Below are positions 5,834-22,635 of a DNA stretch of 32,000 nt, in pieces. The first letter of the stretch is position 1. The number at the start of each line of letters is the position of its first letter. The DNA is taken from assembly GCF_000196555.1 (NCBI RefSeq), contig NC_015067.1:150001-182000 (forward strand), in the 5' to 3' direction. This stretch comes from Bifidobacterium longum subsp. longum JCM 1217. GTDB lineage: Bacteria > Actinomycetota > Actinomycetes > Actinomycetales > Bifidobacteriaceae. Position numbers and translations under genes: made by a program. The notes beneath the pieces are model-generated. The model saw only the letters and a program-made list of their open reading frames with translations, did no database searches and had not been told where the DNA came from.

Positions 5834-8371
5834 ATGGCACAGTCACCACAACTCAAGCAGTCGTCTCCGACCTCGCCCGATCCGCAGGACTTCCGCCTCG
5901 ACGCCACGCCGGCCATGCGCGCCGACAATGTGGTGTCCGGCGAGCACTGGCGCATCGGACTCATCACCGATTCGCTCGTGCGATTCGAATGGTCCGATTC
6001 CGGCGTATTCGAGAACCGCCCGACCCAGACCGTCCTGAACCGCGATTTCGGTAGCCCAGTCGAACGCCGCGTCACCGAGCGTGACGGCCGCGTCATCATC
6101 GACACCGCGGCCCTGACCATCGTCTACGACCAGCAGCCGTTCAGCAAGGAAGGCCTGAGCGTGGTCGTCAAAGGCGTGGCCGACACCCAGTTCAACACCT
6201 GGCATTACGGCGACGCCCAGCGCGGCAACCTCAAAGGCACCGCCCGCACGCTGGACGAGGCGGACGGCGCCATCGAGCTTGACAACGGCGTGATCTCGCG
6301 CGACGGCTGGGCCGTCATCGACGATTCCGCCGCCAACATCATCATCGAAACCGACACGGTGAACGGCAAGGCGAACCCGTTCGGCACCTGGGTATCCCCG
6401 CGCGCCACCGCCGAAACGGACTTGTACTTCTTCGGCTATGGCCACCGCTACATCGAGGCCGTACGCGACTTCTATCGCCTGACCGGCCCCACGCCGCTCC
6501 TGCCGCGCTTCGCCATGGGCAACTGGTGGAGCCGCTACTACCGGTACACGCAGGACGGCTATCTGGCCCTGATGGACCGCTTCAAGCGCGAGGGCATCCC
6601 GTTCACCACCTCCGTGATCGACATGGACTGGCATCGCGTGGACGACGTGGACCCGAAGTACGGTTCCGGCTGGACCGGCTACTCGTGGAACCGCGAACTG
6701 TTCCCCGACCCGCCGGCCTTCCTCGCCGACCTGCACCGGCGCGGCCTGCGCACCACACTGAACGTCCACCCGCGCGACGGCGTGCGCGCGTTCGAGGACG
6801 CCTACCCCGAAGTCGCCAAGCGCGTCGGCATCGACCCGGCCACCGAGGAGAACGTGGAATTCGACCTCACCAACCCGGACTTCGTGGACGCCTATTTCGA
6901 CATGCACCACCGCATGGAGGCCGAAGGCGTCGACTTCTGGTGGCTGGACTGGCAGCAGGGCGGCGTGACCCGCGAGAAAGGTCTCGACCCGCTGTGGATG
7001 CTCAACCACATGCACTACCTCGACTCAGGGCGCGGCGGCAACTGGCCGCTCACCTTCTCCCGGTACGCCGGCCCCGGCTCCCACCGCTACCCGGTCGGCT
7101 TCTCCGGAGACACGATCGTGACCTGGGAATCGCTCGCCTTCCAGCCGCAGTTCACCGCCACCGCTTCCAACATCGGGTATGGCTGGTGGAGCCACGACAT
7201 CGGCGGCCACATGTTCGGCTACCGCAACGAAGAGCTGGAGGCCCGCTGGTACCAGCTCGGCGCGTTCAGCCCGATCAACCGACTGCATTCGTCCAACTCG
7301 CCGTTCTCCGGCAAGGAGCCGTGGAACTTCAACCGTGACGTGAGCGCCGCGATGGTGGACGCGCTGCGTCTGCGCCACGCGATGATGCCGTACTTGTACA
7401 CCATGAACTACCGTGCCGCCGAAGCCGGCCGTCCGCTGGTCGAGCCGATGTACTGGCAGAACCCGGATACGCCGGACGCCTACGAGGTGCCGGACGAGTT
7501 CCGCTTCGGCACCGAGCTCGTGGTCGCGCCGATCGTCTCCCCGGACGATGCCGCCGCCTGCCGCGGCCGCGCCGACGCCTGGCTGCCGCAGGGGGAGTGG
7601 TTCGACTTCTTCGACGGCCGCCGATACGTCTCATCCGACGCCGCCGGCCGCCGACTGGAGGTCTGGCGCTCGCTCGACCGCACGCCGGTGTTCGCCAAGG
7701 CCGGCGCGATCGTGCCGTTGCAGGACGTCGCGGAATCCGGCGAAGCGGTCAACTCTATCGCCAACCCGCAGGCCCTGCGCGTGCTGGTGTTCCCTGGTGC
7801 CGACGGCTCGTTCGTCATGCGCGAGGATCGCGGCACGTGGGGCGCCACCAGCGCCGACACCGCGATAGCGTTCACGTGGGGCGGGGCCGATGCGTCGCCC
7901 AGCGCCTTCACCGTCGCGCCGGTTACCGGCGATACGTCCGCCGTACCCGAGTCGCGCGACTGGACGGTCGTGTTCCGCGGCGTCGCGCCGGTCGATGCGG
8001 CCAGCGGCGTGCGTGCATGGTCCGGCGAGGCTCCGGTCGAGGCAACGGTGGCGTACGACGAGGCGACCATGAGCCTGACCGTGTCCGTCACCGGCATCAG
8101 CTCGGCTGCCAGTCTGCGCATCGAGATTCCCGGCGGTCTGCGCATCGCCGACAATCCGGTCGAATCGGACGCGATGGACCTACTGCTGCACGCCCAGATG
8201 CTCTACCGCACCAAGGAGCTCGCGCTGCAGGCGGTCCACAAGCTCGGCATCGGCGCGATCGGCGCCCTGCGCACCATGAACCGTGGTCCGCGCTACGCCA
8301 ACGATTTCTGGATCACCGACATGCCCGATGCGGTGGCCGGCGCGCTCGAAGAAATTCTGCTGCGCAGCTGA
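5834..8371 (+). CDS. GH31 family alpha-glucosidase / alpha-xylosidase
   Basis: The long ORF carries GH31-type blocks (VIDMDWH, GVDFWWLDWQQGG, GFSGDT, WSHDIGGH, RWYQLGAFSPINRLHS). I prefer the ATG at 5834, 6 nt after the GAAGGGG RBS, over the GTG at 5807 used by the ORF track. Confidence 0.85.
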   Translation: MAQSPQLKQSSPTSPDPQDFRLDATPAMRADNVVSGEHWRIGLITDSLVRFEWSDSGVFENRPTQTVLNRDFGSPVERRVTERDGRVIIDTAALTIVYDQQPFSKEGLSVVVKGVADTQFNTWHYGDAQRGNLKGTARTLDEADGAIELDNGVISRDGWAVIDDSAANIIIETDTVNGKANPFGTWVSPRATAETDLYFFGYGHRYIEAVRDFYRLTGPTPLLPRFAMGNWWSRYYRYTQDGYLALMDRFKREGIPFTTSVIDMDWHRVDDVDPKYGSGWTGYSWNRELFPDPPAFLADLHRRGLRTTLNVHPRDGVRAFEDAYPEVAKRVGIDPATEENVEFDLTNPDFVDAYFDMHHRMEAEGVDFWWLDWQQGGVTREKGLDPLWMLNHMHYLDSGRGGNWPLTFSRYAGPGSHRYPVGFSGDTIVTWESLAFQPQFTATASNIGYGWWSHDIGGHMFGYRNEELEARWYQLGAFSPINRLHSSNSPFSGKEPWNFNRDVSAAMVDALRLRHAMMPYLYTMNYRAAEAGRPLVEPMYWQNPDTPDAYEVPDEFRFGTELVVAPIVSPDDAAACRGRADAWLPQGEWFDFFDGRRYVSSDAAGRRLEVWRSLDRTPVFAKAGAIVPLQDVAESGEAVNSIANPQALRVLVFPGADGSFVMREDRGTWGATSADTAIAFTWGGADASPSAFTVAPVTGDTSAVPESRDWTVVFRGVAPVDAASGVRAWSGEAPVEATVAYDEATMSLTVSVTGISSAASLRIEIPGGLRIADNPVESDAMDLLLHAQMLYRTKELALQAVHKLGIGAIGALRTMNRGPRYANDFWITDMPDAVAGALEEILLRS

Positions 8372-13602: not shown

Positions 13603-13689
13603 GTCTGGCCGCATTGCTTCGATTCCTTCTCCATTCGTAAAACTGTTTGTTATCTCACATCGGGCAGCTGCCGAAAAGCACGAATCTTC

Positions 13690-13718
13690 TTGACGGAGAT
13701 GTCAAGGTTTGTTACGGT
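13690..13718 (+). promoter_or_regulatory. Candidate sigma-70-type promoter for the riboswitch-led operon
   Basis: TTGACG (13690..13695), a 17-nt spacer, then TACGGT (13713..13718). It lies about 12 nt upstream of the aptamer P1 stem. Confidence 0.3.
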
Positions 13719-13727
13719 GACGTGCGA

Positions 13728-13816
13728 AAACCGATTCGTAAGGGGTGCTTTAGGCTGAGACGGTATGTGCCGAACCCTTCGAACCTGTGAGCTAACACTC
13801 GCGTAGGGAATGCGAC
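13728..13816 (+). promoter_or_regulatory. TPP (THI-box) riboswitch aptamer
   Basis: All invariant blocks are present in the right order and spacing: GGGGTGC (13742..13748), GCTGAGA (13754..13760), a P3 hairpin CGG-TATGTG-CCG, AACCC (13773..13777), GAACCTG (13781..13787), a P5 stem GAG/CTC, and GCGTAGGGAA (13801..13810). P1 pairs about 13732..13737 with 13808..13814. Confidence 0.85.
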
Positions 13817-13874
13817 GGTTGAACTCCTCTGTTCGGCTCGGCATCCCATATGCGCGTTGAGAGAGAGGAAGCGT

Positions 13875-15227
13875 ATGTCAATACGCAAGGAGCTGACCGC
13901 CCAGAACGTACTGCTGGGTTTCCAGCATGTGCTTGTTTCCAACGTCTGGCTTGATCCGGTGTTTGTGGCCGGAGCAATCGGCTTACCTATTGCCCTGTCG
14001 TCGAACATGATTAACGCCATCTTCATCGTCTCTGGTCTGGTTACTTTGGTTCAGGCCACTCGGCTGGTTCGCCTGCCGGTGGTGCAGGGGCCGTCAGCCG
14101 CGTTTGACGCGTTGATGATCGCGGCAGGTACGGCCGGCATGCTGGGGGCGGCGAGTTCGTCCATTCTCATCGCTTCGCTTGTGTTCCTGTTGCTGTGCCT
14201 GACCGGTGTGATAGAGCGGATGCGGTTCCTGTTCTCTCCGATGATTTCGGGCGTGGTCATCTTTATGGTCGGTGTCTCGCTGTCTGGATTCACGCTGAGC
14301 GAGTTTCTAGGCGGGGCTCCCGGCGACAAGACGTTCGCCGATCCGCACATCCTGACCGTGTCGATTCTGACCACGGCGATTGTGCTTGTCCTGTCGTTGC
14401 TCGGCAAGGGCCTGCTCAAGTCGTTCTCATTCCTCATCGCGCTCGTCGTCGGCACCGTGGTCGCCGCAGCGTTTGGCATGGTGGACTTCTCTCCTGTGGC
14501 ATCCAAGGGATGGTTGGGCCTGCCGACCTTCCTGCCCTACGGTCCGTTCACATTTGACTGGAAGATCTTCATCCCGTTCTTCATTGCCTACATGGTTGCC
14601 GTCATGGAAGCTCTCGGCGTCTATCAGGCGGCTTCTGAGATTCAGGGCACGTCCCTCGAACGCAAGCAGGTGCGCTACGGTCTTGCCGGCGAGGCGGCCG
14701 GTTCAGCCATTTCCTCGCTGATTGGTGGATTCACCACCACCGCCTACCCGCAAAATGTCGGCCTGCTCAACCTGACCGGCGAAGGCAAGTTGCGCACGCG
14801 CACGCCTGTGATCATCGCCGCTGTGCTGTTGCTGATTCTGGGCTTCGTGCCAAAGGCGGGCGCGTTGCTGTCCGTCATTCCCTCGGCAGTCGTCGGAGGC
14901 ATTTTCCTGCCGGCTGCGGCCAGCCTAATCGTGACCGGCCTGCGCGCCCTGCGCAAGGTCGCTGATGACGAGCGCCGTCAAACGGTCATCGGCATGTCTC
15001 TGTTGCTCGGCATCGCCCTGCCCAAGGCGCTCTCCGGCCTGACCGGCGGCGCAAGCGTGTTCTTTGGCAACAACATCATGGTCGGTGTATTCAGCGCCAT
15101 CATTCTCAATGCGCTTTTCGTCGCTCTTCCGGATTTGGTGGCGAAGCATCGTGCGCCGGCGTCCGTGGATGTTCCAGCAGCCGATCCGGCGGATGGGACT
15201 GGCGCTGCGGCGTACGATGAACGATAA
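13875..15227 (+). CDS. NCS2-family (xanthine/uracil-type) nucleobase-like permease
   Basis: A polytopic membrane protein with the NCS2 N-terminal signature (LLGFQHVLV), GGF..TAYPQNVGL and about 12-14 hydrophobic segments. I prefer the ATG at 13875, after GAGAGAGGAAG, over the TTG at 13857. Confidence 0.85.
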   Translation: MSIRKELTAQNVLLGFQHVLVSNVWLDPVFVAGAIGLPIALSSNMINAIFIVSGLVTLVQATRLVRLPVVQGPSAAFDALMIAAGTAGMLGAASSSILIASLVFLLLCLTGVIERMRFLFSPMISGVVIFMVGVSLSGFTLSEFLGGAPGDKTFADPHILTVSILTTAIVLVLSLLGKGLLKSFSFLIALVVGTVVAAAFGMVDFSPVASKGWLGLPTFLPYGPFTFDWKIFIPFFIAYMVAVMEALGVYQAASEIQGTSLERKQVRYGLAGEAAGSAISSLIGGFTTTAYPQNVGLLNLTGEGKLRTRTPVIIAAVLLLILGFVPKAGALLSVIPSAVVGGIFLPAAASLIVTGLRALRKVADDERRQTVIGMSLLLGIALPKALSGLTGGASVFFGNNIMVGVFSAIILNALFVALPDLVAKHRAPASVDVPAADPADGTGAAAYDER

Positions 15228-15263
15228 TGCTGGTTGATATTGGATATTGACAGGAGCGATGCA

Positions 15264-16385
15264 ATGACTGATGTGATGGATGACGCGCGTCGTATCAAGC
15301 GCGGGATTCTGGATTTTATCCATACCTATGGCTGTGAGCAGGCCCCGGAAGAGGCGTTTGGTGCGTTGGCGCGCGACGTGTTCATCTATCAGTACACGTA
15401 TGATCTGCCGTACCGTCGTTACTGCGCGGCTAAACGCGTCACCCCCGCAACGCTCAAGGATTGGCGGGAGATTCCGCCGATGCCGGTGGACGGGTTCAAG
15501 CACCTTGACCTTTCGACCATACCGACCGAGCAGTGCGAAGCCGTATTCATGACGAGCGGAACCACGCATGGCGGCAAGATGCGTGGGCGCAACTTCCATC
15601 CCGATCTTGAGGTGTGGGATGAATCAATGATTGTGCCGTTCCGTCATTTCATCATGCCGGATCGAGAGCGTATCCGCATCGCCGTGATTTCGCCGGCATG
15701 GGACATGAACCAGAACTCCTCCCTGTCGCGCTACCTTACCAAGGCCGTGGAGTGCTGCGGCAGCGAAGGCAGCGGTGTGTTCTTCGACGAGCATGGACTC
15801 AAGTTCGATGAAATCATCGCCTTCCTTAACCGTGCGGTGTCTGACGGTGAACCGGTGATGCTGATGGGTGTCTCGTCGTCCTATCTGTATCTGTTCGATT
15901 ACCTGCATGAGCATGATCTGACGTTCGCGCTGGCCCCCGATAGCCGGTTGTTCGACACTGGCGGCTTCAAGAGCACTAAGCGCGACATCACCGAAGACCA
16001 GATGCTTGATGAGCTGGAACAGACACTGGGGGTGCCGCGCCACCACTGCGTCAACATGTATGGCATGACCGAGTTGAGCTCGCAGATCTATGACCAAAAT
16101 ATTCTGTCGTGGTATACGGATGGCACCAGCAACTATCTCAAGGCGAACCCCGCCTGGGTGCGCACGGTCTTCCTCGATCCGGAAACGCTGACTCCCGTCA
16201 AGGATGGTGAGACCGGTGTGATAGCCCATTACGACCTTGCCAATTGGAATTCATGCATCGGTATTCTGACCGAGGACCTCGGCCATCGGACCCCGGACGG
16301 ATTCCTGCTGCAGGGCAGGGCGAAGGGAGCCGAGGCTCGTGGGTGCTCAATCGCGGTAGACGAGGTCATCAGTGCCAACCGTTGA
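15264..16385 (+). CDS. LuxE-family acyl-protein synthetase (adenylate-forming carboxylate activase)
   Basis: LuxE/PaaK-like blocks are present: IPPMPVDGFK, FMTSGTTHG (P-loop analogue of SSGTTG), FDTGGFKS, NMYGMTELSSQIY, HYDLANWNSC, LQGRAKGAEARGCS. The ATG at 15264 lies 7 nt after an AGGAG RBS. The gap after the permease stop is 36 nt. Confidence 0.75.
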   Translation: MTDVMDDARRIKRGILDFIHTYGCEQAPEEAFGALARDVFIYQYTYDLPYRRYCAAKRVTPATLKDWREIPPMPVDGFKHLDLSTIPTEQCEAVFMTSGTTHGGKMRGRNFHPDLEVWDESMIVPFRHFIMPDRERIRIAVISPAWDMNQNSSLSRYLTKAVECCGSEGSGVFFDEHGLKFDEIIAFLNRAVSDGEPVMLMGVSSSYLYLFDYLHEHDLTFALAPDSRLFDTGGFKSTKRDITEDQMLDELEQTLGVPRHHCVNMYGMTELSSQIYDQNILSWYTDGTSNYLKANPAWVRTVFLDPETLTPVKDGETGVIAHYDLANWNSCIGILTEDLGHRTPDGFLLQGRAKGAEARGCSIAVDEVISANR

Positions 16386-17871
16386 TGAATCCGTGAGTCA
16401 GGCCATTGATGTCTTCCACCTGCCCTCGGGAGTGGATGTTTCGGATTACGAAATCTATGAGGTCGCCACATCGGATGGGGTGAAGCGTTTGCGCTATCCG
16501 CGACTGGATGGCTCAAAGGTGACTTCCCTTGCCAAGCAGCTTGTCGATGTTCGCAACCGCACGCTTGCCGCGATGAGTGTCAACGATATTCTCGACATCG
16601 TGGCCGACGCGGCCCAACTATGGGCCGATCCGGATTTTGAGCTGCGGCGTCAGGCTGAACTGCTGATTCCCGCAATCACCGGATATGAGCCTGACATGGT
16701 GCGGATTGAGCTCAAACGGTATATGCGCCAGTTCAGGCGTCGTGAACTGCTCCGGTTCCTTGACTCCGAAATCGGTCAGCCGTCTATGCTCGACGAATTC
16801 CGGCCGAACAAGGCGGGGGGATACTCTAAATATGTGGGCCCAGCGCTCACCTATCAGGTGTTCTCCAGCAATGTGCCGGGGATTCCCGTGTGGAGCATGG
16901 CGATGACCCTGCTGGTCAAAGGCGCGATTCTTGGCAAATCTTCATTTTCCGAGCCGGTGATGCCTGCGTTCTTTGCTCGCAGCATTGCGATGGTCAATTC
17001 CGACCTCGCTGATGCCATTGCGGTGGTTCCATGGAAGGGCGGCTCGCAGCAGCTCGAGGATTCAGCCATCGATGCGGCCGATGCCGTGATTGTTTACGGT
17101 TCTTCGCAGACTACCAAATTGATTGCGGGCAAAGTCGCCGGGTCCAAGCCCTGTCTAGGTTACGGAGCAAAAGTCGGGTTGGCGTTCATTGGCCGAGAGG
17201 CTTTGCGTCCTGATACCTATGCCGATACCGTGCATCGTGTGGCTGTTGACATCGCCACATATGACCAGCAAAGCTGCCTGGCTCCGCAGACCGTGTTCGT
17301 GGAGACTGATGGAGCCCTCACCCCTCGTGAAGTGGCTCAGCTGCTCGGTGGCGAGCTTGAGAATCAGCAGCGCAAATATCCGCGCTCCGTATTGAGTGAC
17401 GCCGAGAACGTGGCCATTCAGCGGGCGCGCACCGACGCTGAGATGAGAGCCTTGATGGGCGGGAAGGCCGCGGTGTTCGCCAGTGGCCATAGCACGGCAT
17501 GGTCGGTGCTGTATCGAGAACTTGACGGTAGCGGTGCCGACGAGGATGTTGCTTCGCTGATGTCGCCGTTGAACCGCACCGTCAACGTGGTGGCGGTGCC
17601 AGATTTGTTGGACGCTGCCAGAAGACTGACTTCCTGCCGTGGCTGGCTGCAGAGCTGCGGTGTCGCTGTGGATTCAACCAGACTGTTTGGTCTTGCAGAT
17701 ACATTGGCCGAGGTCGGTGTGAATCGCATCTGTCCGCTCGGTGAGATGGATCGGGCGAAATCCGGCTGGCATCATGATGGGGGCTTCAACCTCATCGATC
17801 TGTTGCGCGCGGTGGATGTCGAACGCGGCAGCGACGCGTACAGCGATTCGTTCGATATGGATATGGAATAG
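16372..17871 (+). CDS. LuxC-family acyl-CoA/acyl-protein reductase (aldehyde-forming, ALDH superfamily)
   Basis: LuxC-type blocks are present: SSNVPGIPVWSMAMTLLVKGAILGKSS, VVPWKGG, a catalytic-Cys block YDQQSCLAPQTVFVE, WLQSCGV, and GVNRICPLGEMDRAKSGWHHDGG. The GTG start overlaps the LuxE-like stop by 14 nt, suggesting translational coupling. Confidence 0.75.
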   Translation: MPTVDESVSQAIDVFHLPSGVDVSDYEIYEVATSDGVKRLRYPRLDGSKVTSLAKQLVDVRNRTLAAMSVNDILDIVADAAQLWADPDFELRRQAELLIPAITGYEPDMVRIELKRYMRQFRRRELLRFLDSEIGQPSMLDEFRPNKAGGYSKYVGPALTYQVFSSNVPGIPVWSMAMTLLVKGAILGKSSFSEPVMPAFFARSIAMVNSDLADAIAVVPWKGGSQQLEDSAIDAADAVIVYGSSQTTKLIAGKVAGSKPCLGYGAKVGLAFIGREALRPDTYADTVHRVAVDIATYDQQSCLAPQTVFVETDGALTPREVAQLLGGELENQQRKYPRSVLSDAENVAIQRARTDAEMRALMGGKAAVFASGHSTAWSVLYRELDGSGADEDVASLMSPLNRTVNVVAVPDLLDAARRLTSCRGWLQSCGVAVDSTRLFGLADTLAEVGVNRICPLGEMDRAKSGWHHDGGFNLIDLLRAVDVERGSDAYSDSFDMDME

Positions 17872-17924
17872 GCCTGTGCTGTTGCGGGCAGCAGAGGCTG
17901 GTAGCAGGGCGAAAGGCAAGGGTA

Positions 17925-18728
17925 ATGACAGAGCAAAGCGATATGGCACGGCGTCCAATGGTGAATCTGGATGGCAGAACAGCGATCATCACCGGTTCCG
18001 GCAAGGGCATAGGAGCGGCTGTGGCGAAATGCCTGGCATCGCACGGAGCCGCTGTCGTCATCAATTACGTACATGACGCCGCCAGCGCGCAGCGCACCGT
18101 TGAAGACATCCACTCGCTGGGAGGCTTGGCTATAGCTGTACAGGCGGATGTTTGCGATGAATCGCAATCTTCCAAGCTAGTGGGTACCGCTGTCGACTCA
18201 TTCGGCGGCGTGGACATCTTAGTGAATAATGCTTTCGGACGCTTCTCCTTTGACCCGCGTCGCCGTTCCACTTTTGCTGGAGGCGATTGGGATGAGTTTA
18301 GCGCACAGATCGAGGGATGCCTGCATGGTGCATATCTGATGTGCTCACATGTGGTGCCGCTGATGCGAGCCCAGACCTCCGGGCGTATCATCAACATCTC
18401 CAGCAATCTGGTCGATTCGCCCATCGTGCCCTACCATTCGTATATCACTGCCAAAGGCGGCTTGGTCGGCATGACCCGCTCTCTGGCCCAGGAGCTGGGC
18501 GGCTTCGGCATTACCGTTAATGCCATTGCCGCAGGTTTGACGGCCGGAACCGCATCCAGCGCAGCCACCACCGAGGATGTTCGTGAACGAATCATTGCCA
18601 TGACGCCTCTTGGCCGCCTTGCCCGTCCCGATGACATCGCCGGAGGGGTCGCGTTGTTGGCGTCCGACATGGCCGGCTTCATTACCGGACAATGTCTGCA
18701 CGTCGATGGTGGGCTGACCATGCGCTGA
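17925..18728 (+). CDS. Short-chain dehydrogenase/reductase (FabG-like)
   Basis: A classical SDR: TGSGKGIG Rossmann motif, NNAF, catalytic YxxxK (YITAKGG), and VNAIAAG. The gap after the LuxC-like stop is 53 nt. Confidence 0.9.
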   Translation: MTEQSDMARRPMVNLDGRTAIITGSGKGIGAAVAKCLASHGAAVVINYVHDAASAQRTVEDIHSLGGLAIAVQADVCDESQSSKLVGTAVDSFGGVDILVNNAFGRFSFDPRRRSTFAGGDWDEFSAQIEGCLHGAYLMCSHVVPLMRAQTSGRIINISSNLVDSPIVPYHSYITAKGGLVGMTRSLAQELGGFGITVNAIAAGLTAGTASSAATTEDVRERIIAMTPLGRLARPDDIAGGVALLASDMAGFITGQCLHVDGGLTMR

Positions 18729-18840
18729 GGCGCAGGGGCGGTGTGCTGACGCGCTATGGTTGTCGCATCCGATTGGTGCAATGGAATGCAGCAAGAGTAA
18801 AGGCGCCAATTGGCGTGCGGGCATGTGGACGGAGGTAACT

Positions 18841-19512
18841 ATGCTGCTCAAAGCCGTGTTCTGGGATTTGGACGGTACTCTCATCGATTCTGAGCCGCTC
18901 TGGCATGACGGTGAGATTGAGATCGCGCACAACAATGGCGGCGAGTGGAACGAGGACCTCGGTTGGGAGTGCTCCGGCACTCCGGTACCACACGTGGCAG
19001 AGGTCATGATTGCGCATGGCTGCACATTGAGCGTTCCCGAAATCGACAAGCAGCTCAAGGATTATGTGTTCAAGGCGGAGGTCGAACGTCTGCCGTGGAT
19101 TCCTGGTGTGCAAGACGTGCTGCATTCGCTCAAGGAAGCCGACATCCCATCCATGCTGGTCACTACTTCGCCTCGCCGCATGGCCGAGAACATCATGAAG
19201 CAGGCTGATGGATTGCTTGCCGGCTACGTCTGCGGCGATGATCCGTACGAGCACAAGCCGAGCCCTGCCCCATATCTGGCCGCGGCTGAGAGACTCGGCA
19301 TCGCGCCTGAAGACATGGTCAAGTGCGTGGTAATGGAAGATTCCTCATCCGGTCTGCGCTCCGGCGCCGCCTCGGGGGCCACACTGATTGCGCAGACTGG
19401 CTGGATTCGCACCGACACTTCCGGCCTTGGCCAGTTTGCCTCCATCGACTCGTATGAGGGCATCGATGCGGCCGCGCTGGACGCCTTTGTGCGGCAGCGT
19501 TTGGGGGAGTAG
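18841..19512 (+). CDS. HAD-superfamily hydrolase, subfamily IA (phosphatase / beta-phosphoglucomutase-like)
   Basis: HAD motif I sits right after the preferred start (MLLKAVFWDLDGTLIDSE), motif II is LVTTSP, and motif IV is MEDSSSGLRSG. The ATG at 18841 follows a GGAGG RBS. The ORF-track start at 18760 is unlikely. Confidence 0.85.
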   Translation: MLLKAVFWDLDGTLIDSEPLWHDGEIEIAHNNGGEWNEDLGWECSGTPVPHVAEVMIAHGCTLSVPEIDKQLKDYVFKAEVERLPWIPGVQDVLHSLKEADIPSMLVTTSPRRMAENIMKQADGLLAGYVCGDDPYEHKPSPAPYLAAAERLGIAPEDMVKCVVMEDSSSGLRSGAASGATLIAQTGWIRTDTSGLGQFASIDSYEGIDAAALDAFVRQRLGE

Positions 19513-19662
19513 AAATTTCGTTTGTATTGCGGAGTTTGTGTGGGAAACCCCAGTCGACCTGATGTTATAGGCCGGCTGGTAGGGTATTTGACGGTTTGCA
19601 TATAACTGTCTGGTTCATTGGGCTGGCAGCTCAATACAAGATTTAGGACTCATAGGAAACAC

Positions 19663-20388
19663 ATGGGCTTCGTTAATTTCATCATCGAACTGCTGAAGGA
19701 TCCGCGTGCCGCGATTGCCGGTTGGATTGCCATGGGCGTGGCGCCGACCCTCGGATTCATCTTCCTCATCGTATTCATCGAAACGGGCGTGGTGTTCTTC
19801 CCGTTCCTGCCCGGTGATTCGCTGTTGTTCGCGGCCGGCGTGTTCGCAGCCCCGGATGCTGCGACCGGCAAGGCCGCGCTGCCGCTGTTCTGGTTGCTGC
19901 CGGTGGTTTGGTGCGCGCCGATTATCGGCGACCAGTGCAACTACTTCATCGGTCATTTCTTTGGCCGCCGTATTATCCAATCCGGCAAGGTGAAGGCGCT
20001 GACTCCTGAGCGACTGGCCAAAACCGAGGGCATGATTGAAAAGTGGGGCCCGCTGGCTGTGTTCCTGGGCCGCTTCTTCCCGTTCATTCGTACGTTCATG
20101 CCGTTCATTTCCGGTATTTCCGGTATGCGTTGGAGCCGTTTCACGCCGTTCTCAGTGCTCGGCGGCCTGTGCTGGTCCACGTTGTTCACGCTGCTGGGCT
20201 ACTTCTTCGGCAACATTCCGGCCGTGCAGGATCACTTCGAACTGGTGATCGTGCTGATTCTGCTGGTTTCGCTCGCCCCGACCATCATCGGTCTGCTCAA
20301 GGCCAAGTTCGGCAAGAAGAAGCCGGCCAAGGTGACCGATGCTCAGTTGGACGTCATGGAAGACGGCATCAAGAACCTCGATAAGTAA
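19663..20388 (+). CDS. DedA / SNARE-associated family membrane protein
   Basis: The DedA signature FIETGVVFFPFLPGDSLLFAAG and several TM segments. The ATG at 19663 is preferred. Confidence 0.85.
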   Translation: MGFVNFIIELLKDPRAAIAGWIAMGVAPTLGFIFLIVFIETGVVFFPFLPGDSLLFAAGVFAAPDAATGKAALPLFWLLPVVWCAPIIGDQCNYFIGHFFGRRIIQSGKVKALTPERLAKTEGMIEKWGPLAVFLGRFFPFIRTFMPFISGISGMRWSRFTPFSVLGGLCWSTLFTLLGYFFGNIPAVQDHFELVIVLILLVSLAPTIIGLLKAKFGKKKPAKVTDAQLDVMEDGIKNLDK

Positions 20389-20431: not shown

Positions 20432-20469
20432 AAGGCCCTGACTGTGCATATGAGGTCAGGGCCTTTTCT
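20432..20469 (+). terminator. Rho-independent terminator after the DedA gene
   Basis: AAGGCCCTGAC, a 12-nt loop, GTCAGGGCCTT, then TTTCTG. Confidence 0.7.
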
Positions 20470-20497
20470 GCATGAGATGGGCGTGAAACAACAGCGT

Positions 20498-20610: not shown

Positions 20611-21561
20611 ATGAATAGCAACACCACACCCCGCGTGGCGCGTAGGATCACCTCGCCAGCGGTAGCACCTCCGGGCATTCCGCTGCCCACGGACGATGCG
20701 CCGATTCCAGCGCATCGCTACTACACTCCGCCGCCCAGGCCGTTGGCCTCATGCGAACGGCAGAGATCGGGCGAGGCTCCGGCACTCGCCCTAACTACAG
20801 ACACCAGCTTCCATAACATTGTGACGATGACGTCAGGTCATGGAGGCGTGGGGTTGAGTGTCATGGCTTCCATGCTTGCATGGACATTGGCGAGACGTGA
20901 ACACAGCTGCGCTCTCATAGACGCTGATTTCGTGGCCGGATGCCTTGACCTGCTGCTGGGTGTAGAACGAGAGCCGGGTTTACGATTCAGCCAAGTCGAC
21001 GCACCCCTCGGCCGCATCGAGGGCGATGCGATGAACCATGAGCTGATGATGTGGGAGGGTGTGCGAGTACTTCCCTATGACCCTTGGAGCGCGCGCCAGC
21101 CTGACTGGTGGGAAGTTCAAGCGGCCATTCGAGCCTTGGCGGAAACGAACGACGTTGTCATCGTAGATGCCGGTCAGGGTGGACTCATTGAGACCGTACC
21201 CGATCTGCGCAGTGGCATGCAGGTGATTGCCGCGGAATTGTCGGTGATGGGGCTGGCCAGAGCCAAGTCGCACCGGTCCAGACTGGATTCATGGGGCTGT
21301 GAAGCGCCACATATCGTCGGCGTGGAACCACGTGGCGCTCCACGTGGGAGAGGCCACGTGGGTATTGGTGAGGCGCAGGACTATTTGACTGCCACGGTAT
21401 TGGGGCCTGTCAAACCAAGTGTCAATCTGTGTGGAGACGTACTGGAAGGCCTCGGCATCAGATCGGTGACCAAAGGCAGCCGCAAAGCCGTGAGCTTGCT
21501 TGCCGATCTTGTCGAGCAGGCCATTCGCCCGGTTTCGGGAGCTTCTTGCAAGGACCGGTGA
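20611..21561 (+). CDS. tadZ: TadZ/CpaE-like ParA-family ATPase of the Tad pilus locus
   Basis: A deviant Walker-A-like region TSGHGGVGLSVMASMLAWTLA...ALIDADF, as the first gene of a tad cluster. Confidence 0.75.
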   Translation: MNSNTTPRVARRITSPAVAPPGIPLPTDDAPIPAHRYYTPPPRPLASCERQRSGEAPALALTTDTSFHNIVTMTSGHGGVGLSVMASMLAWTLARREHSCALIDADFVAGCLDLLLGVEREPGLRFSQVDAPLGRIEGDAMNHELMMWEGVRVLPYDPWSARQPDWWEVQAAIRALAETNDVVIVDAGQGGLIETVPDLRSGMQVIAAELSVMGLARAKSHRSRLDSWGCEAPHIVGVEPRGAPRGRGHVGIGEAQDYLTATVLGPVKPSVNLCGDVLEGLGIRSVTKGSRKAVSLLADLVEQAIRPVSGASCKDR

Positions 21562-21567
21562 TGCGGT

Positions 21568-22635
21568 ATGGCTGCCGTAATCACTCGGGCTGATGAGCCC
21601 GGCGCAGTGCCCAGAACTGTGTTCTTCGGTCTATTGAATGATGTGGCATCCGACCCGCAGGTTACCGATCTGGCGGTGACCTGTGATGGCCGCGTTTGGG
21701 CGGACCGCGGCAACGGCATGCGAGAAACAGTATTGCGTGTGCCGTTTCGCTCGCCGCAAGTAGTTCGAGAATACGCCGTCCAACTGTGCGCGCAGCTTGG
21801 GCGCAGACTGGATGATGCCTGCCCGATAGCGGACGCCGCCAGTCCAGACGGCATCCGCGTGCATGCGGTGATTGCCCCATTGGTGCCACAAGGTGCCGCA
21901 ATCTCCATACGGTTCCCTGACAGGACCATGGCATCGTTGCGACATCTGAGCCAATTAGGTGTATTCCCGGCTGCTTGGCTGCCGATGTTCGTGGGACTGG
22001 TGCGCAGACATGCCACAGTGCTGATTACCGGCGGAACAGGCGTGGGCAAGACCACCTTGCTCAAGGCGCTGCTGGCGCAATGCGATGTGAACGAGCGCAT
22101 CGTCACCGTAGAGGAAGTTCGTGAACTGGGGGAACTGGGGCGTGGCGATCATGTGTCGTTGGTAACGCGCGAGGCGAATGTGGAGGGCGTCGGAGCCATA
22201 AGTCTGACGGACTTGGTCAAAGCGACGTTGCGAATGCGCCCCGACCGCGTGGTGCTGGGCGAATGCCGTGGCGCGGAAATCGTCGACCTATTGCGCGCGT
22301 TCAATTCTGGTCATCACGGTGGCATGACCACTGTGCATGCGGACGGCGTGAACCGAGTACCGTCCAGGCTGATTTCGCTTGGATTACTCGCCGGAGTCAG
22401 TCCACAGGCGTTGGCCATGCTGGCGGCAGGCGCTTTCGACGCGGTGGTGCATTTGGAGCGAGTGAACGGACAGCGGCGTATCACGCAGATCGGCGAACTG
22501 CGTGTAGCACATGGTGAACTGGCAGGAACACCGCTGGCGGTATGGAATGGCTGCCATCCTCCTCGGTATGCCGCCGAATGGGGGCACTTCATTGAACGAT
22601 GGGGCATCGTTCCCGGGCCGAGTGGTGGTGGGTGA
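21568..22635 (+). CDS. tadA: TadA/CpaF secretion ATPase
   Basis: Walker A ITGGTGVGKTTLLKAL, Walker B and Asp box (RPDRVVLGECRG), and His box (GHHGGMTTVHA). Confidence 0.9.
   Translation: MAAVITRADEPGAVPRTVFFGLLNDVASDPQVTDLAVTCDGRVWADRGNGMRETVLRVPFRSPQVVREYAVQLCAQLGRRLDDACPIADAASPDGIRVHAVIAPLVPQGAAISIRFPDRTMASLRHLSQLGVFPAAWLPMFVGLVRRHATVLITGGTGVGKTTLLKALLAQCDVNERIVTVEEVRELGELGRGDHVSLVTREANVEGVGAISLTDLVKATLRMRPDRVVLGECRGAEIVDLLRAFNSGHHGGMTTVHADGVNRVPSRLISLGLLAGVSPQALAMLAAGAFDAVVHLERVNGQRRITQIGELRVAHGELAGTPLAVWNGCHPPRYAAEWGHFIERWGIVPGPSGGG

Follow-up and report, generated by a model that had tools for sequence, protein, structure and literature searches.

A 32-kb stretch of Bifidobacterium longum subsp. 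longum JCM 1217 DNA (NC_015067.1, positions 150,001 to 182,000) was analysed as a whole and is referred to here as the window; feature coordinates are positions within it. On its + strand a thiamine pyrophosphate (TPP) riboswitch is followed by genes for an NCS2 permease, a LuxE-like acyl-protein synthetase, a LuxC-like reductase and a short-chain dehydrogenase/reductase (SDR), together called the cassette below. Judged from sequence comparison, this unit of switch and enzymes is probably an undescribed recycling route for oxidised fragments of vitamin B1. The original prediction, made from the DNA letters, had placed a full THI-box aptamer at 13728-13816, upstream of the gene string. Scanning the whole window against Rfam (cmscan) bore this out with the covariance model itself, RF00059 matching at 13731-13827 on the + strand with 59.3 bits (gathering score 54.3, E 2.2e-9). 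The match spans model positions 1-105 without truncation and was the sole one in the window to reach the gathering threshold.

Genes and leader of the cassette

The first gene encodes a permease of the NCS2/NAT family (450 residues; open reading frame 13857-15227, likely start ATG 13875, with GAGAGGAAG 4-5 nt upstream), which matched PF00860 (Xan_ur_permease) at 227 bits. Against the pbuX model TIGR03173 it scored 350.9 bits, under the cutoff of 414.15, and a Bacillaceae homologue scored 338.4. Its segments QNVGLLNLTG and MEALG align to E290 and E241 of UraA, and the NAT motif QNxGxxxxTG and the glutamate of transmembrane helix 8 (TM8) are kept in 30 of 31 cassette permeases. The permease is presumed to be the importer of the cassette substrate.

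After a gap of 36 nt comes the gene for the LuxE-like adenylating acyl-protein synthetase (373 residues, 15264-16385, in a reading frame open from 15234), with AGGAG lying 7 nt upstream of its ATG at 15264. The protein matched PF04443 over residues 42-377 with 69.6 bits (gathering score 24.9), and its sole PDB relative was LuxE (7xc6_E). Its translation carries the sequences TSGTT and YGMTE, which we take to be motifs of the ANL adenylation type, and its C-terminus, ...GAEARGCSIAVDE..., matches the acyl-Cys motif TRxxKGCxLS of LuxE. This short C-terminal motif with its acylated Cys defines LuxE, where it replaces the C-terminal subdomain of ANL enzymes (PMC9157457). All intact LuxE proteins of the surveyed cassettes end in GR..G.EA(R/K)GCS, the (R/K)GCS being invariant among intact homologues.

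The gene for the LuxC-like protein, a thioester (acyl-protein) reductase of the aldehyde-forming type (499 residues, 16372-17871), overlaps the preceding gene by 14 nt. It matched PF05893 at 519.7 bits, its sole PDB relative was LuxC (7xc6_A), and its YDQQSC aligns to the YDQQAC of that structure, with the cysteine, Cys302, invariant in 44 homologues. Both proteins are distantly related to the fatty acid reductase of Photobacterium (7xc6; phmmer scores of 51-54 bits), and neither reached its equivalog model, the LuxE-like protein scoring 69.5 bits against the NF052244 cutoff of 550 and the LuxC-like protein 72.1 bits against the NF052251 cutoff of 750. Scores of about a tenth of the cutoffs identify them as members of the LuxE and LuxC families and not as orthologues of the luminescence proteins.

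A gap of 53 nt separates luxC from the gene for the FabG-like SDR (267 residues, 17925-18728), a presumed aldehyde reductase. It matched adh_short_C2 at 194 bits, and its best NCBIfam model was NF006393/PRK08642, scoring 256 bits in the window and between 257 and 299 bits for six other cassettes, with generic FabG models at about 200. A 512-residue 'FabG' in a public B. breve record (P0337) joins the C-terminal part of a LuxC homologue to the SDR, and this fusion is probably a frameshift or gene-calling artefact of that assembly.

The expression platform (13824-13877, + strand) was read from a minimum free energy fold of 13810-13895, in which a small hairpin holds the AUG, and the Shine-Dalgarno region GAGAGG (about 13864-13869) is a possible pairing partner of CUCCUC (13824-13829), directly after P1. 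This arrangement suggests that the permease is probably controlled at the level of translation. Because the fold sequestering the Shine-Dalgarno region was indistinguishable from those of shuffled sequences (z = -0.5), translational control is something we only infer in this window.

Just 5' of the aptamer, a candidate promoter (TTGACG, 17 nt, TACGGT; 13690-13718, + strand) was read by eye; it lies below the consensus thresholds of the promoter scan and is put forward as a candidate only. A hairpin with a T-rich tail at 13688-13707, directly 3' of hspR, overlaps the TTGACG, and the region may alternatively serve as the terminator of the dnaK-hspR operon.

Linkage of the cassette to TPP elements

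One genome per species was scanned with the LuxC-like protein, which gave 46 loci from Bifidobacterium, from Bacillaceae (Niallia, Neobacillus, Priestia, Peribacillus and Pullulanibacillus), from Leuconostoc, Weissella and Fructobacillus, from three Staphylococcus species, from Comamonadaceae and Ramlibacter, and from NC10/Methylomirabilota. By tblastn, luxE and luxC were adjacent at every locus, and the SDR gene followed luxC directly in all Gram-positive loci. The LuxC cluster at 98% identity held 5580 member sequences, and the cassette is therefore very common in public data.

The count of TPP elements took in 41 LuxC-anchored loci with usable upstream sequence, together with four cassette loci anchored on the SDR (L051-L054); L032 and L036, with upstream sequence too short to judge, were left out. 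In 39 of the 41, the region upstream of the cassette held a same-strand Rfam match at gathering score, and a DNA profile built from these matches (nhmmer) recovered the element in L025, L027 and L051-L054 with E <= 8e-8. The LuxE-LuxC block thus recurs with a same-strand TPP element kept upstream of it, at a position corresponding to that in the window, in all 45 related loci, which fall into six lineages (Bifidobacterium, Bacillaceae, Leuconostocaceae, Staphylococcus, Burkholderiales and NC10). No TPP element was found at four control loci with a FabG-like SDR but without LuxCE.

The order of the window (TPP element, NCS2 permease, luxE, luxC, SDR) is that of Bifidobacterium and of Bacillaceae at large, and an NCS2 permease gene stands 5' of luxE in 31 loci. 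In Neobacillus the same order runs on into thiM-thiD-thiE, making a seven-gene operon preceded by a promoter-like site, an aptamer and a canonical terminator with a T-run. In Niallia and its relatives, tandem TPP aptamers come first, then a gene for ThiW, the predicted thiazole importer (TIGR02359, 176 bits), and then NCS2, luxE, luxC and SDR; Niallia, L017 and L037 all have ThiW in this intermediate position. In Niallia sp. L008 the NCS2 gene is absent, and ThiW, directly followed by luxE, luxC and SDR, is the sole adjacent transporter. In Leuconostocaceae tandem TPP elements precede NCS2, luxE, luxC and SDR, and luxE of Leuconostoc holzapfelii (L022 6810-7953) falls in two frames (tblastn 6882-7622 and 7612-7953), either as a frameshifted pseudogene or through a sequencing error. 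The tandem aptamers, 75-160 nt apart, were located at L008 5628-6000, L009 4467-4894, L010 4633-4928, L017 4646-4933, L022 5222-5512, L039 5209-5512 and L042 5241-5493; they belong to Niallia and relatives, Leuconostoc, Weissella and Fructobacillus, and elsewhere the aptamer is single.

In the three Staphylococcus species the riboswitch lies directly 5' of luxE-luxC-SDR, and a second, divergent TPP riboswitch (L024 5778-6583, L029 3833-6562, L030 5743-6515) precedes a gene for a YkoE-like (PF09819) membrane protein, 3' of which, on the same strand, L029 and L030 carry genes for a DUF308 membrane protein and a class I/II aminotransferase. The Burkholderiales operon runs from the TPP element through thiD, luxE, luxC, an ABC ATPase, a permease, an NMT1/THI5-type binding protein and the SDR to thiE, with a 4-nt overlap between thiD and luxE in L026; by PDB comparison the binding protein belongs to the THI5/ThiY/SsuA superfamily, a comparison that does not distinguish the ligand. 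A divergent TPP element in the same intergenic region (L027 5576-5639, L026 5563-5672 and L052 2521-2583, all on the - strand) stands before thiO-thiS-thiG, so that the two elements lie back to back, the other preceding thiD-luxE-luxC-ABC-SDR-thiE. Xenophilus has its TPP element directly 5' of luxE-luxC-ABC-SDR. In NC10 (L034 5265-9302) the TPP riboswitch is followed first by a gene for a zinc-dependent alcohol dehydrogenase (PF08240/PF00107; Ahr/AdhP-like) and then by luxE-luxC. An SDR is absent, and the dehydrogenase seems to have taken over the step from aldehyde to alcohol as a non-orthologous substitute. The cassette is thus co-operonic with thiD, thiM, thiE, thiW or an ABC importer of the THI5/NMT1 type.

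These arrangements bear on the simplest rival explanation, namely that the riboswitch gates the permease alone and that LuxE, LuxC and the SDR have no part in thiamine metabolism, producing fatty aldehydes or alcohols instead. Characterised LuxE and LuxC proteins do reduce long-chain fatty acids, and the riboswitch of the window looks translational and would act on the first gene. Against this stand the linkage to TPP elements in 45 of 45 loci from six lineages and the presence of thiD, thiM and thiE inside the same operons; moreover, in Staphylococcus and Xenophilus no permease gene comes between the riboswitch and luxE, and the riboswitch is therefore not gating a permease only. Control of the permease alone is effectively excluded at the level of the family by this adjacency and by the thi genes within the operons. 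A fatty aldehyde role is likewise opposed by the low equivalog scores and by the lack of adjacent luxD, luciferase or lipid genes: none of the annotated related loci showed a luciferase-like or LuxD-like gene, and neither luxA/B nor luxD was found among the neighbours in the window (chaperones, permease, SDR, HAD, DedA and tad genes). A fatty aldehyde or lux-type function was rejected on the equivalog scores and on the absence of luxD and luxAB, and the explanation as a whole is highly improbable.

The predicted pathway, OarX and the choice of substrate

In the pathway that we propose, a low cellular level of TPP would let the riboswitch permit expression, probably by freeing the Shine-Dalgarno sequence of the first gene in this window and by way of a classical terminator in Bacillaceae. 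The NCS2 permease would take up an oxidised (carboxylate) moiety of thiamine, which the LuxE-like enzyme would adenylate and hold as a thioester on its C-terminal Cys. The acyl group would pass to Cys302 of the LuxC-like protein and be reduced with NAD(P)H to the aldehyde, which the FabG-like SDR would turn into a primary alcohol, to be phosphorylated by ThiD or ThiM for use by ThiE. The substrate would most likely be 4-amino-2-methylpyrimidine-5-carboxylate (PCA), yielding the hydroxymethylpyrimidine HMP. The active-site residues and the NC10 alcohol dehydrogenase support a sequence of acid, enzyme thioester, aldehyde and alcohol; the NC10 enzyme, standing in place of the SDR, fits the progression from COOH through CHO to CH2OH.

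Part of this reasoning has a precedent in OarX, a TPP-regulated FabG-like SDR flagged as an orphan in 2002 (Rodionov et al.) and re-examined in 2024 by Oliveira-Filho, Rodionov and Hanson (PMC11223231). There OarX is described as clustering with thiM, thiD, thiE and thiamine transporters in Firmicutes, Actinobacteria and Proteobacteria, and occasionally with acyl-CoA synthetase genes. PCA and 4-methylthiazole-5-acetate (MTA) are given as documented thiamine catabolites of unknown fate, and under the working hypothesis OarX would serve in a route that first activates PCA, MTA or thiamin acetic acid and then reduces the activated acid (PMC11223231). The original prediction was aware of no such salvage logic among known TPP-regulated genes; the same reduction had been proposed for OarX in 2024.

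The cassette SDR fits the description of OarX, being FabG-like (NF006393 as best model), linked to a TPP element and clustered with thiM, thiD or thiE. Both are FabG-like SDRs 3' of a TPP riboswitch, with thi genes as neighbours and a hypothesis of reductive salvage attached to them. They differ in their partners: the published contexts of oarX hold fmnO or an occasional acyl-CoA synthetase, whereas the cassette SDR is always paired with LuxE-LuxC. Every sampled SDR homologue closer than FabG sits in a LuxCE cassette, the next-best being genuine FabG at 44-47% identity, and our searches for SDR homologues, with look-ups of their contexts, reached cassette SDRs and then true FabG but not the oarX-fmnO context.

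The difference in partners matters for the growth tests made with Corynebacterium glutamicum, which was unable to use PCA, MTA, thiamin acetic acid, oxo-HET or oxo-thiamin (PMC11223231). The operon described for it is oarX-fmnO, and the main text of that article mentions no LuxE/LuxC or NCS2 partner. The cassette offers the activation step that could explain this negative result. Our scheme also suggests that aldehydes, which were not among the compounds tried for OarX, would be the direct substrates of the SDR. FmnO, the OarX partner, is described as an FMN-dependent monooxygenase (PMC11223231); if it is luciferase-like, the contexts of OarX may together hold LuxA/B-, LuxC- and LuxE-like genes, in parallel to the aldehyde/acid cycle of lux.

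Our literature search found no paper linking LuxE/LuxC, acyl-protein synthetase, acyl-CoA or carboxylic acid reductase, or NCS2 permeases to thiamin or a TPP riboswitch, and the partnership of LuxE, LuxC and NCS2, with the missing activation step that it would supply, appears to be undescribed. A transcriptome paper on B. breve UCC2003 lists only one other TPP riboswitch, at Bbr_0674-77. The statement in the original prediction that LuxC/LuxE pairs of non-luminous bacteria have no assigned role was too broad, since the literature discusses such homologues in flagellin glycosylation islands, at the mel2 locus of M. marinum and in tambjamine biosynthesis.

Within the salvage reading we give a mild preference to the pyrimidine acid PCA over the thiazole acetate, because the dominant importer is of the nucleobase type, and because the Burkholderiales operon combines an importer carrying a THI5/ThiY-family binding protein with thiD and thiE and without thiM. 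The transporters that would suit a pyrimidine are of the NCS2, THI5/ThiY or YkoE type, and the kinase of the Burkholderiales operon is ThiD, not ThiM. The same pathway logic could be kept with MTA as substrate, reduced through the acetaldehyde to the hydroxyethylthiazole HET and phosphorylated by ThiM. The position of ThiW speaks for MTA: in Niallia, L017 and L037 its gene separates the tandem riboswitches from the cassette, and in L008 it is the sole adjacent transporter, so that a thiazole substrate is favoured in that locus. MTA is further supported by the placing of thiM after the SDR in Neobacillus and by the report that oarX clusters mostly with thiazole genes (PMC11223231). LuxE has, in addition, been compared structurally with the phenylacetate-CoA ligase PaaK1 (PMC9157457), and MTA is an arylacetic acid. 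This is countered by the make-up of the Burkholderiales operons, by the 31 loci with a nucleobase-type permease as the commonest transporter, and by the finding that a thiG mutant of C. glutamicum was not rescued by MTA (PMC11223231), the oarX operon of that strain being described with no LuxCE. On balance we regard MTA as an unlikely substrate.

The acid might also be a different one, or the route might be related to thiamine without salvaging a catabolite; thiamin acetic acid, a derivative of PCA or MTA, and an endogenous intermediate from some precursor route that has escaped recognition would all fall here. The negative growth tests led their authors to suggest a derivative of the tested acids as the true substrate (PMC11223231), and the mixture of transporters (NCS2, ThiW, YkoE-like and NMT1-type ABC) would agree with such a view. 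The conserved set of acid activation, reductase and alcohol-forming dehydrogenase, always beside an importer, nevertheless best fits the uptake and reduction of an external acid, and thiamin acetic acid would be an unlikely substrate for an NCS2 permease. An explanation of this kind is quite improbable.

Several points weigh against the salvage of PCA itself. Every biochemical step is argued from homology and genomic context, from which we infer the direction of the reactions, the substrate and operon-wide regulation in this genome. The fatty acid specificity of the characterised LuxE and LuxC proteins, the negative results with C. glutamicum and the ThiW genes of Niallia and L008 all sit uneasily with it. 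The permease retains the QN motif of the xanthine/urate type, scores near PbuX and shows no sign in its sequence of a carboxylate substrate. Finally, riboswitch action in this window seems limited to translation of the first gene, and the fold that would mediate it did not stand out from shuffled sequences.

With these points taken into account, we consider it fairly probable that the cassette is a TPP-repressed operon for the salvage of a thiamine precursor, with the conversion of PCA to HMP as its most likely reaction. The salvage interpretation of the original prediction stands as far as genomic context goes, through the TPP linkage, the thi operons, the invariant Cys and the exchange of the SDR for the zinc-dependent enzyme; the novelty of the salvage logic and the membership of a HAD phosphatase, considered below, did not stand. 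We lean somewhat towards the broader proposal that LuxE/LuxC reductases, an OarX-like aldehyde reductase and an importer form a widespread, TPP-regulated system for the re-reduction of thiamine catabolites (PCA to HMP, possibly thiazole acetate to HET). Such a system would be a previously unrecognised class of salvage and a role for LuxCE outside light production, and it would supply the missing partner that accounts for the negative results obtained with OarX by itself.

The major acids of thiamine breakdown are excreted in mammalian urine and are formed by microbes. If the proposal is true, it would describe a new salvage route for vitamin B1 that would matter for cross-feeding in four settings (infant gut, skin, food fermentations and freshwater), and thousands of annotations as 'acyl-CoA reductase', 'xanthine permease' and 'FabG' would be corrected. 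Bifidobacteria, Staphylococcus lugdunensis, Leuconostoc, Neobacillus and Ramlibacter carry the cassette and make the hypothesis testable. The orphan OarX and the fate of the major thiamine catabolites would also become directly testable, the only experimental test of OarX having been a negative one in C. glutamicum, where no LuxE/LuxC is described for the oarX operon.

Neighbouring genes and comparison with known systems

Downstream of the SDR, and after a spacer of 112 nt, lies a gene for a HAD-IA phosphatase (18841-19512, + strand; PF00702/PF13419; ATG with GGAGG upstream), followed by one for a DedA/VTT-domain membrane protein (19618-20388, + strand; PF09335 and NF008102). The spacings of 36, 53 and 112 nt and the overlap of 14 nt are those of the original prediction, and its five family assignments (permease, LuxE, LuxC, SDR and HAD) were upheld by Pfam. 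Its inclusion of the HAD gene in the cassette was not: such a gene 3' of the SDR was found elsewhere only in L001, a 97%-identical relative, and was absent from all other loci, and a DedA gene next to the cassette was likewise seen elsewhere only in L001. Both are therefore neighbours and not conserved components, and the HAD phosphatase, to which only generic sugar-phosphatase models of NCBIfam matched, was rejected as a conserved part of the pathway. The HAD gene is co-directional with the cassette and may be co-transcribed with it. The spacer between SDR and HAD contains a perfect 12-bp palindrome, CGCCAATTGGCG, at 18804-18815, without a T-run, which may bind a protein or form a small hairpin.

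Terminator-like sites inside the gene string were at chance level in a consensus scan (6 found, 6.6 expected). The first convincing intrinsic terminator 3' of the riboswitch, read from the sequence at about 20432-20470 on the + strand, is a strong hairpin with a T-run (GAAGGCCCTGAC...GTCAGGGCCTTTTCT) after the DedA gene, just as had been noted by eye; it was not called by the scan, which allows loops of up to 8 nt, and its loop of 12 nt is the presumed reason. GC content at third codon positions was 0.63-0.75 in the cassette genes against 0.78-0.83 in hspR, dnaJ and dnaK, which put figures to a weaker bias judged earlier by eye. The downstream tad genes were just as low (0.62-0.63), and the dip is therefore not diagnostic of transfer; a horizontal origin was set aside as unsupported. 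The window holds malQ, genes for a LacI-type regulator and a GH31 glycosidase, and dnaK-grpE-dnaJ-hspR upstream; beyond DedA follow a tad-type pilus locus, from 20611-22635 onward (CpaE/TadZ-like ATPase, TadA secretion ATPase), dnaX and a sortase gene.

Among known systems, ThiXYZ/ThiY-YlmB-TenA (for formylaminopyrimidine), CytX, ThiW, YkoEDC and ThiM/ThiD resemble the cassette in being TPP-regulated modules of importers and enzymes that feed HMP or HET to ThiD, ThiM and ThiE, and the Burkholderiales cassettes share with them a binding protein of the ThiY/THI5 family. These routes work by hydrolysis or deformylation of amine derivatives or by direct import of the alcohol, and to our knowledge none of them performs an ATP- and NAD(P)H-dependent reduction of a carboxylate. 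The cassette permease shares with PbuX, XanQ and UraA the NCS2/NAT fold family, the QNxGxxxxTG motif and the TM8 glutamate. In contrast to PbuX, it falls under the cutoff of the family model, follows a TPP and not a purine riboswitch and is genetically tied to LuxE-LuxC-SDR.

A further likeness is to LuxC-LuxE of the lux operon (PDB 7xc6; PMC9157457), with which the cassette has in common both Pfam families, the active-site Cys of LuxC, the C-terminal acyl-Cys motif of LuxE and the adjacent, overlapping genes. This likeness implies an ATP-dependent conversion of an acid, through an enzyme thioester, to an aldehyde without CoA. In contrast to the lux operon, the cassette lacks luxD, luxAB and luxG, is placed under a TPP riboswitch and has an alcohol-forming reductase and an importer attached to it, and its predicted substrate is a small heteroaromatic acid where that of lux is tetradecanoate.

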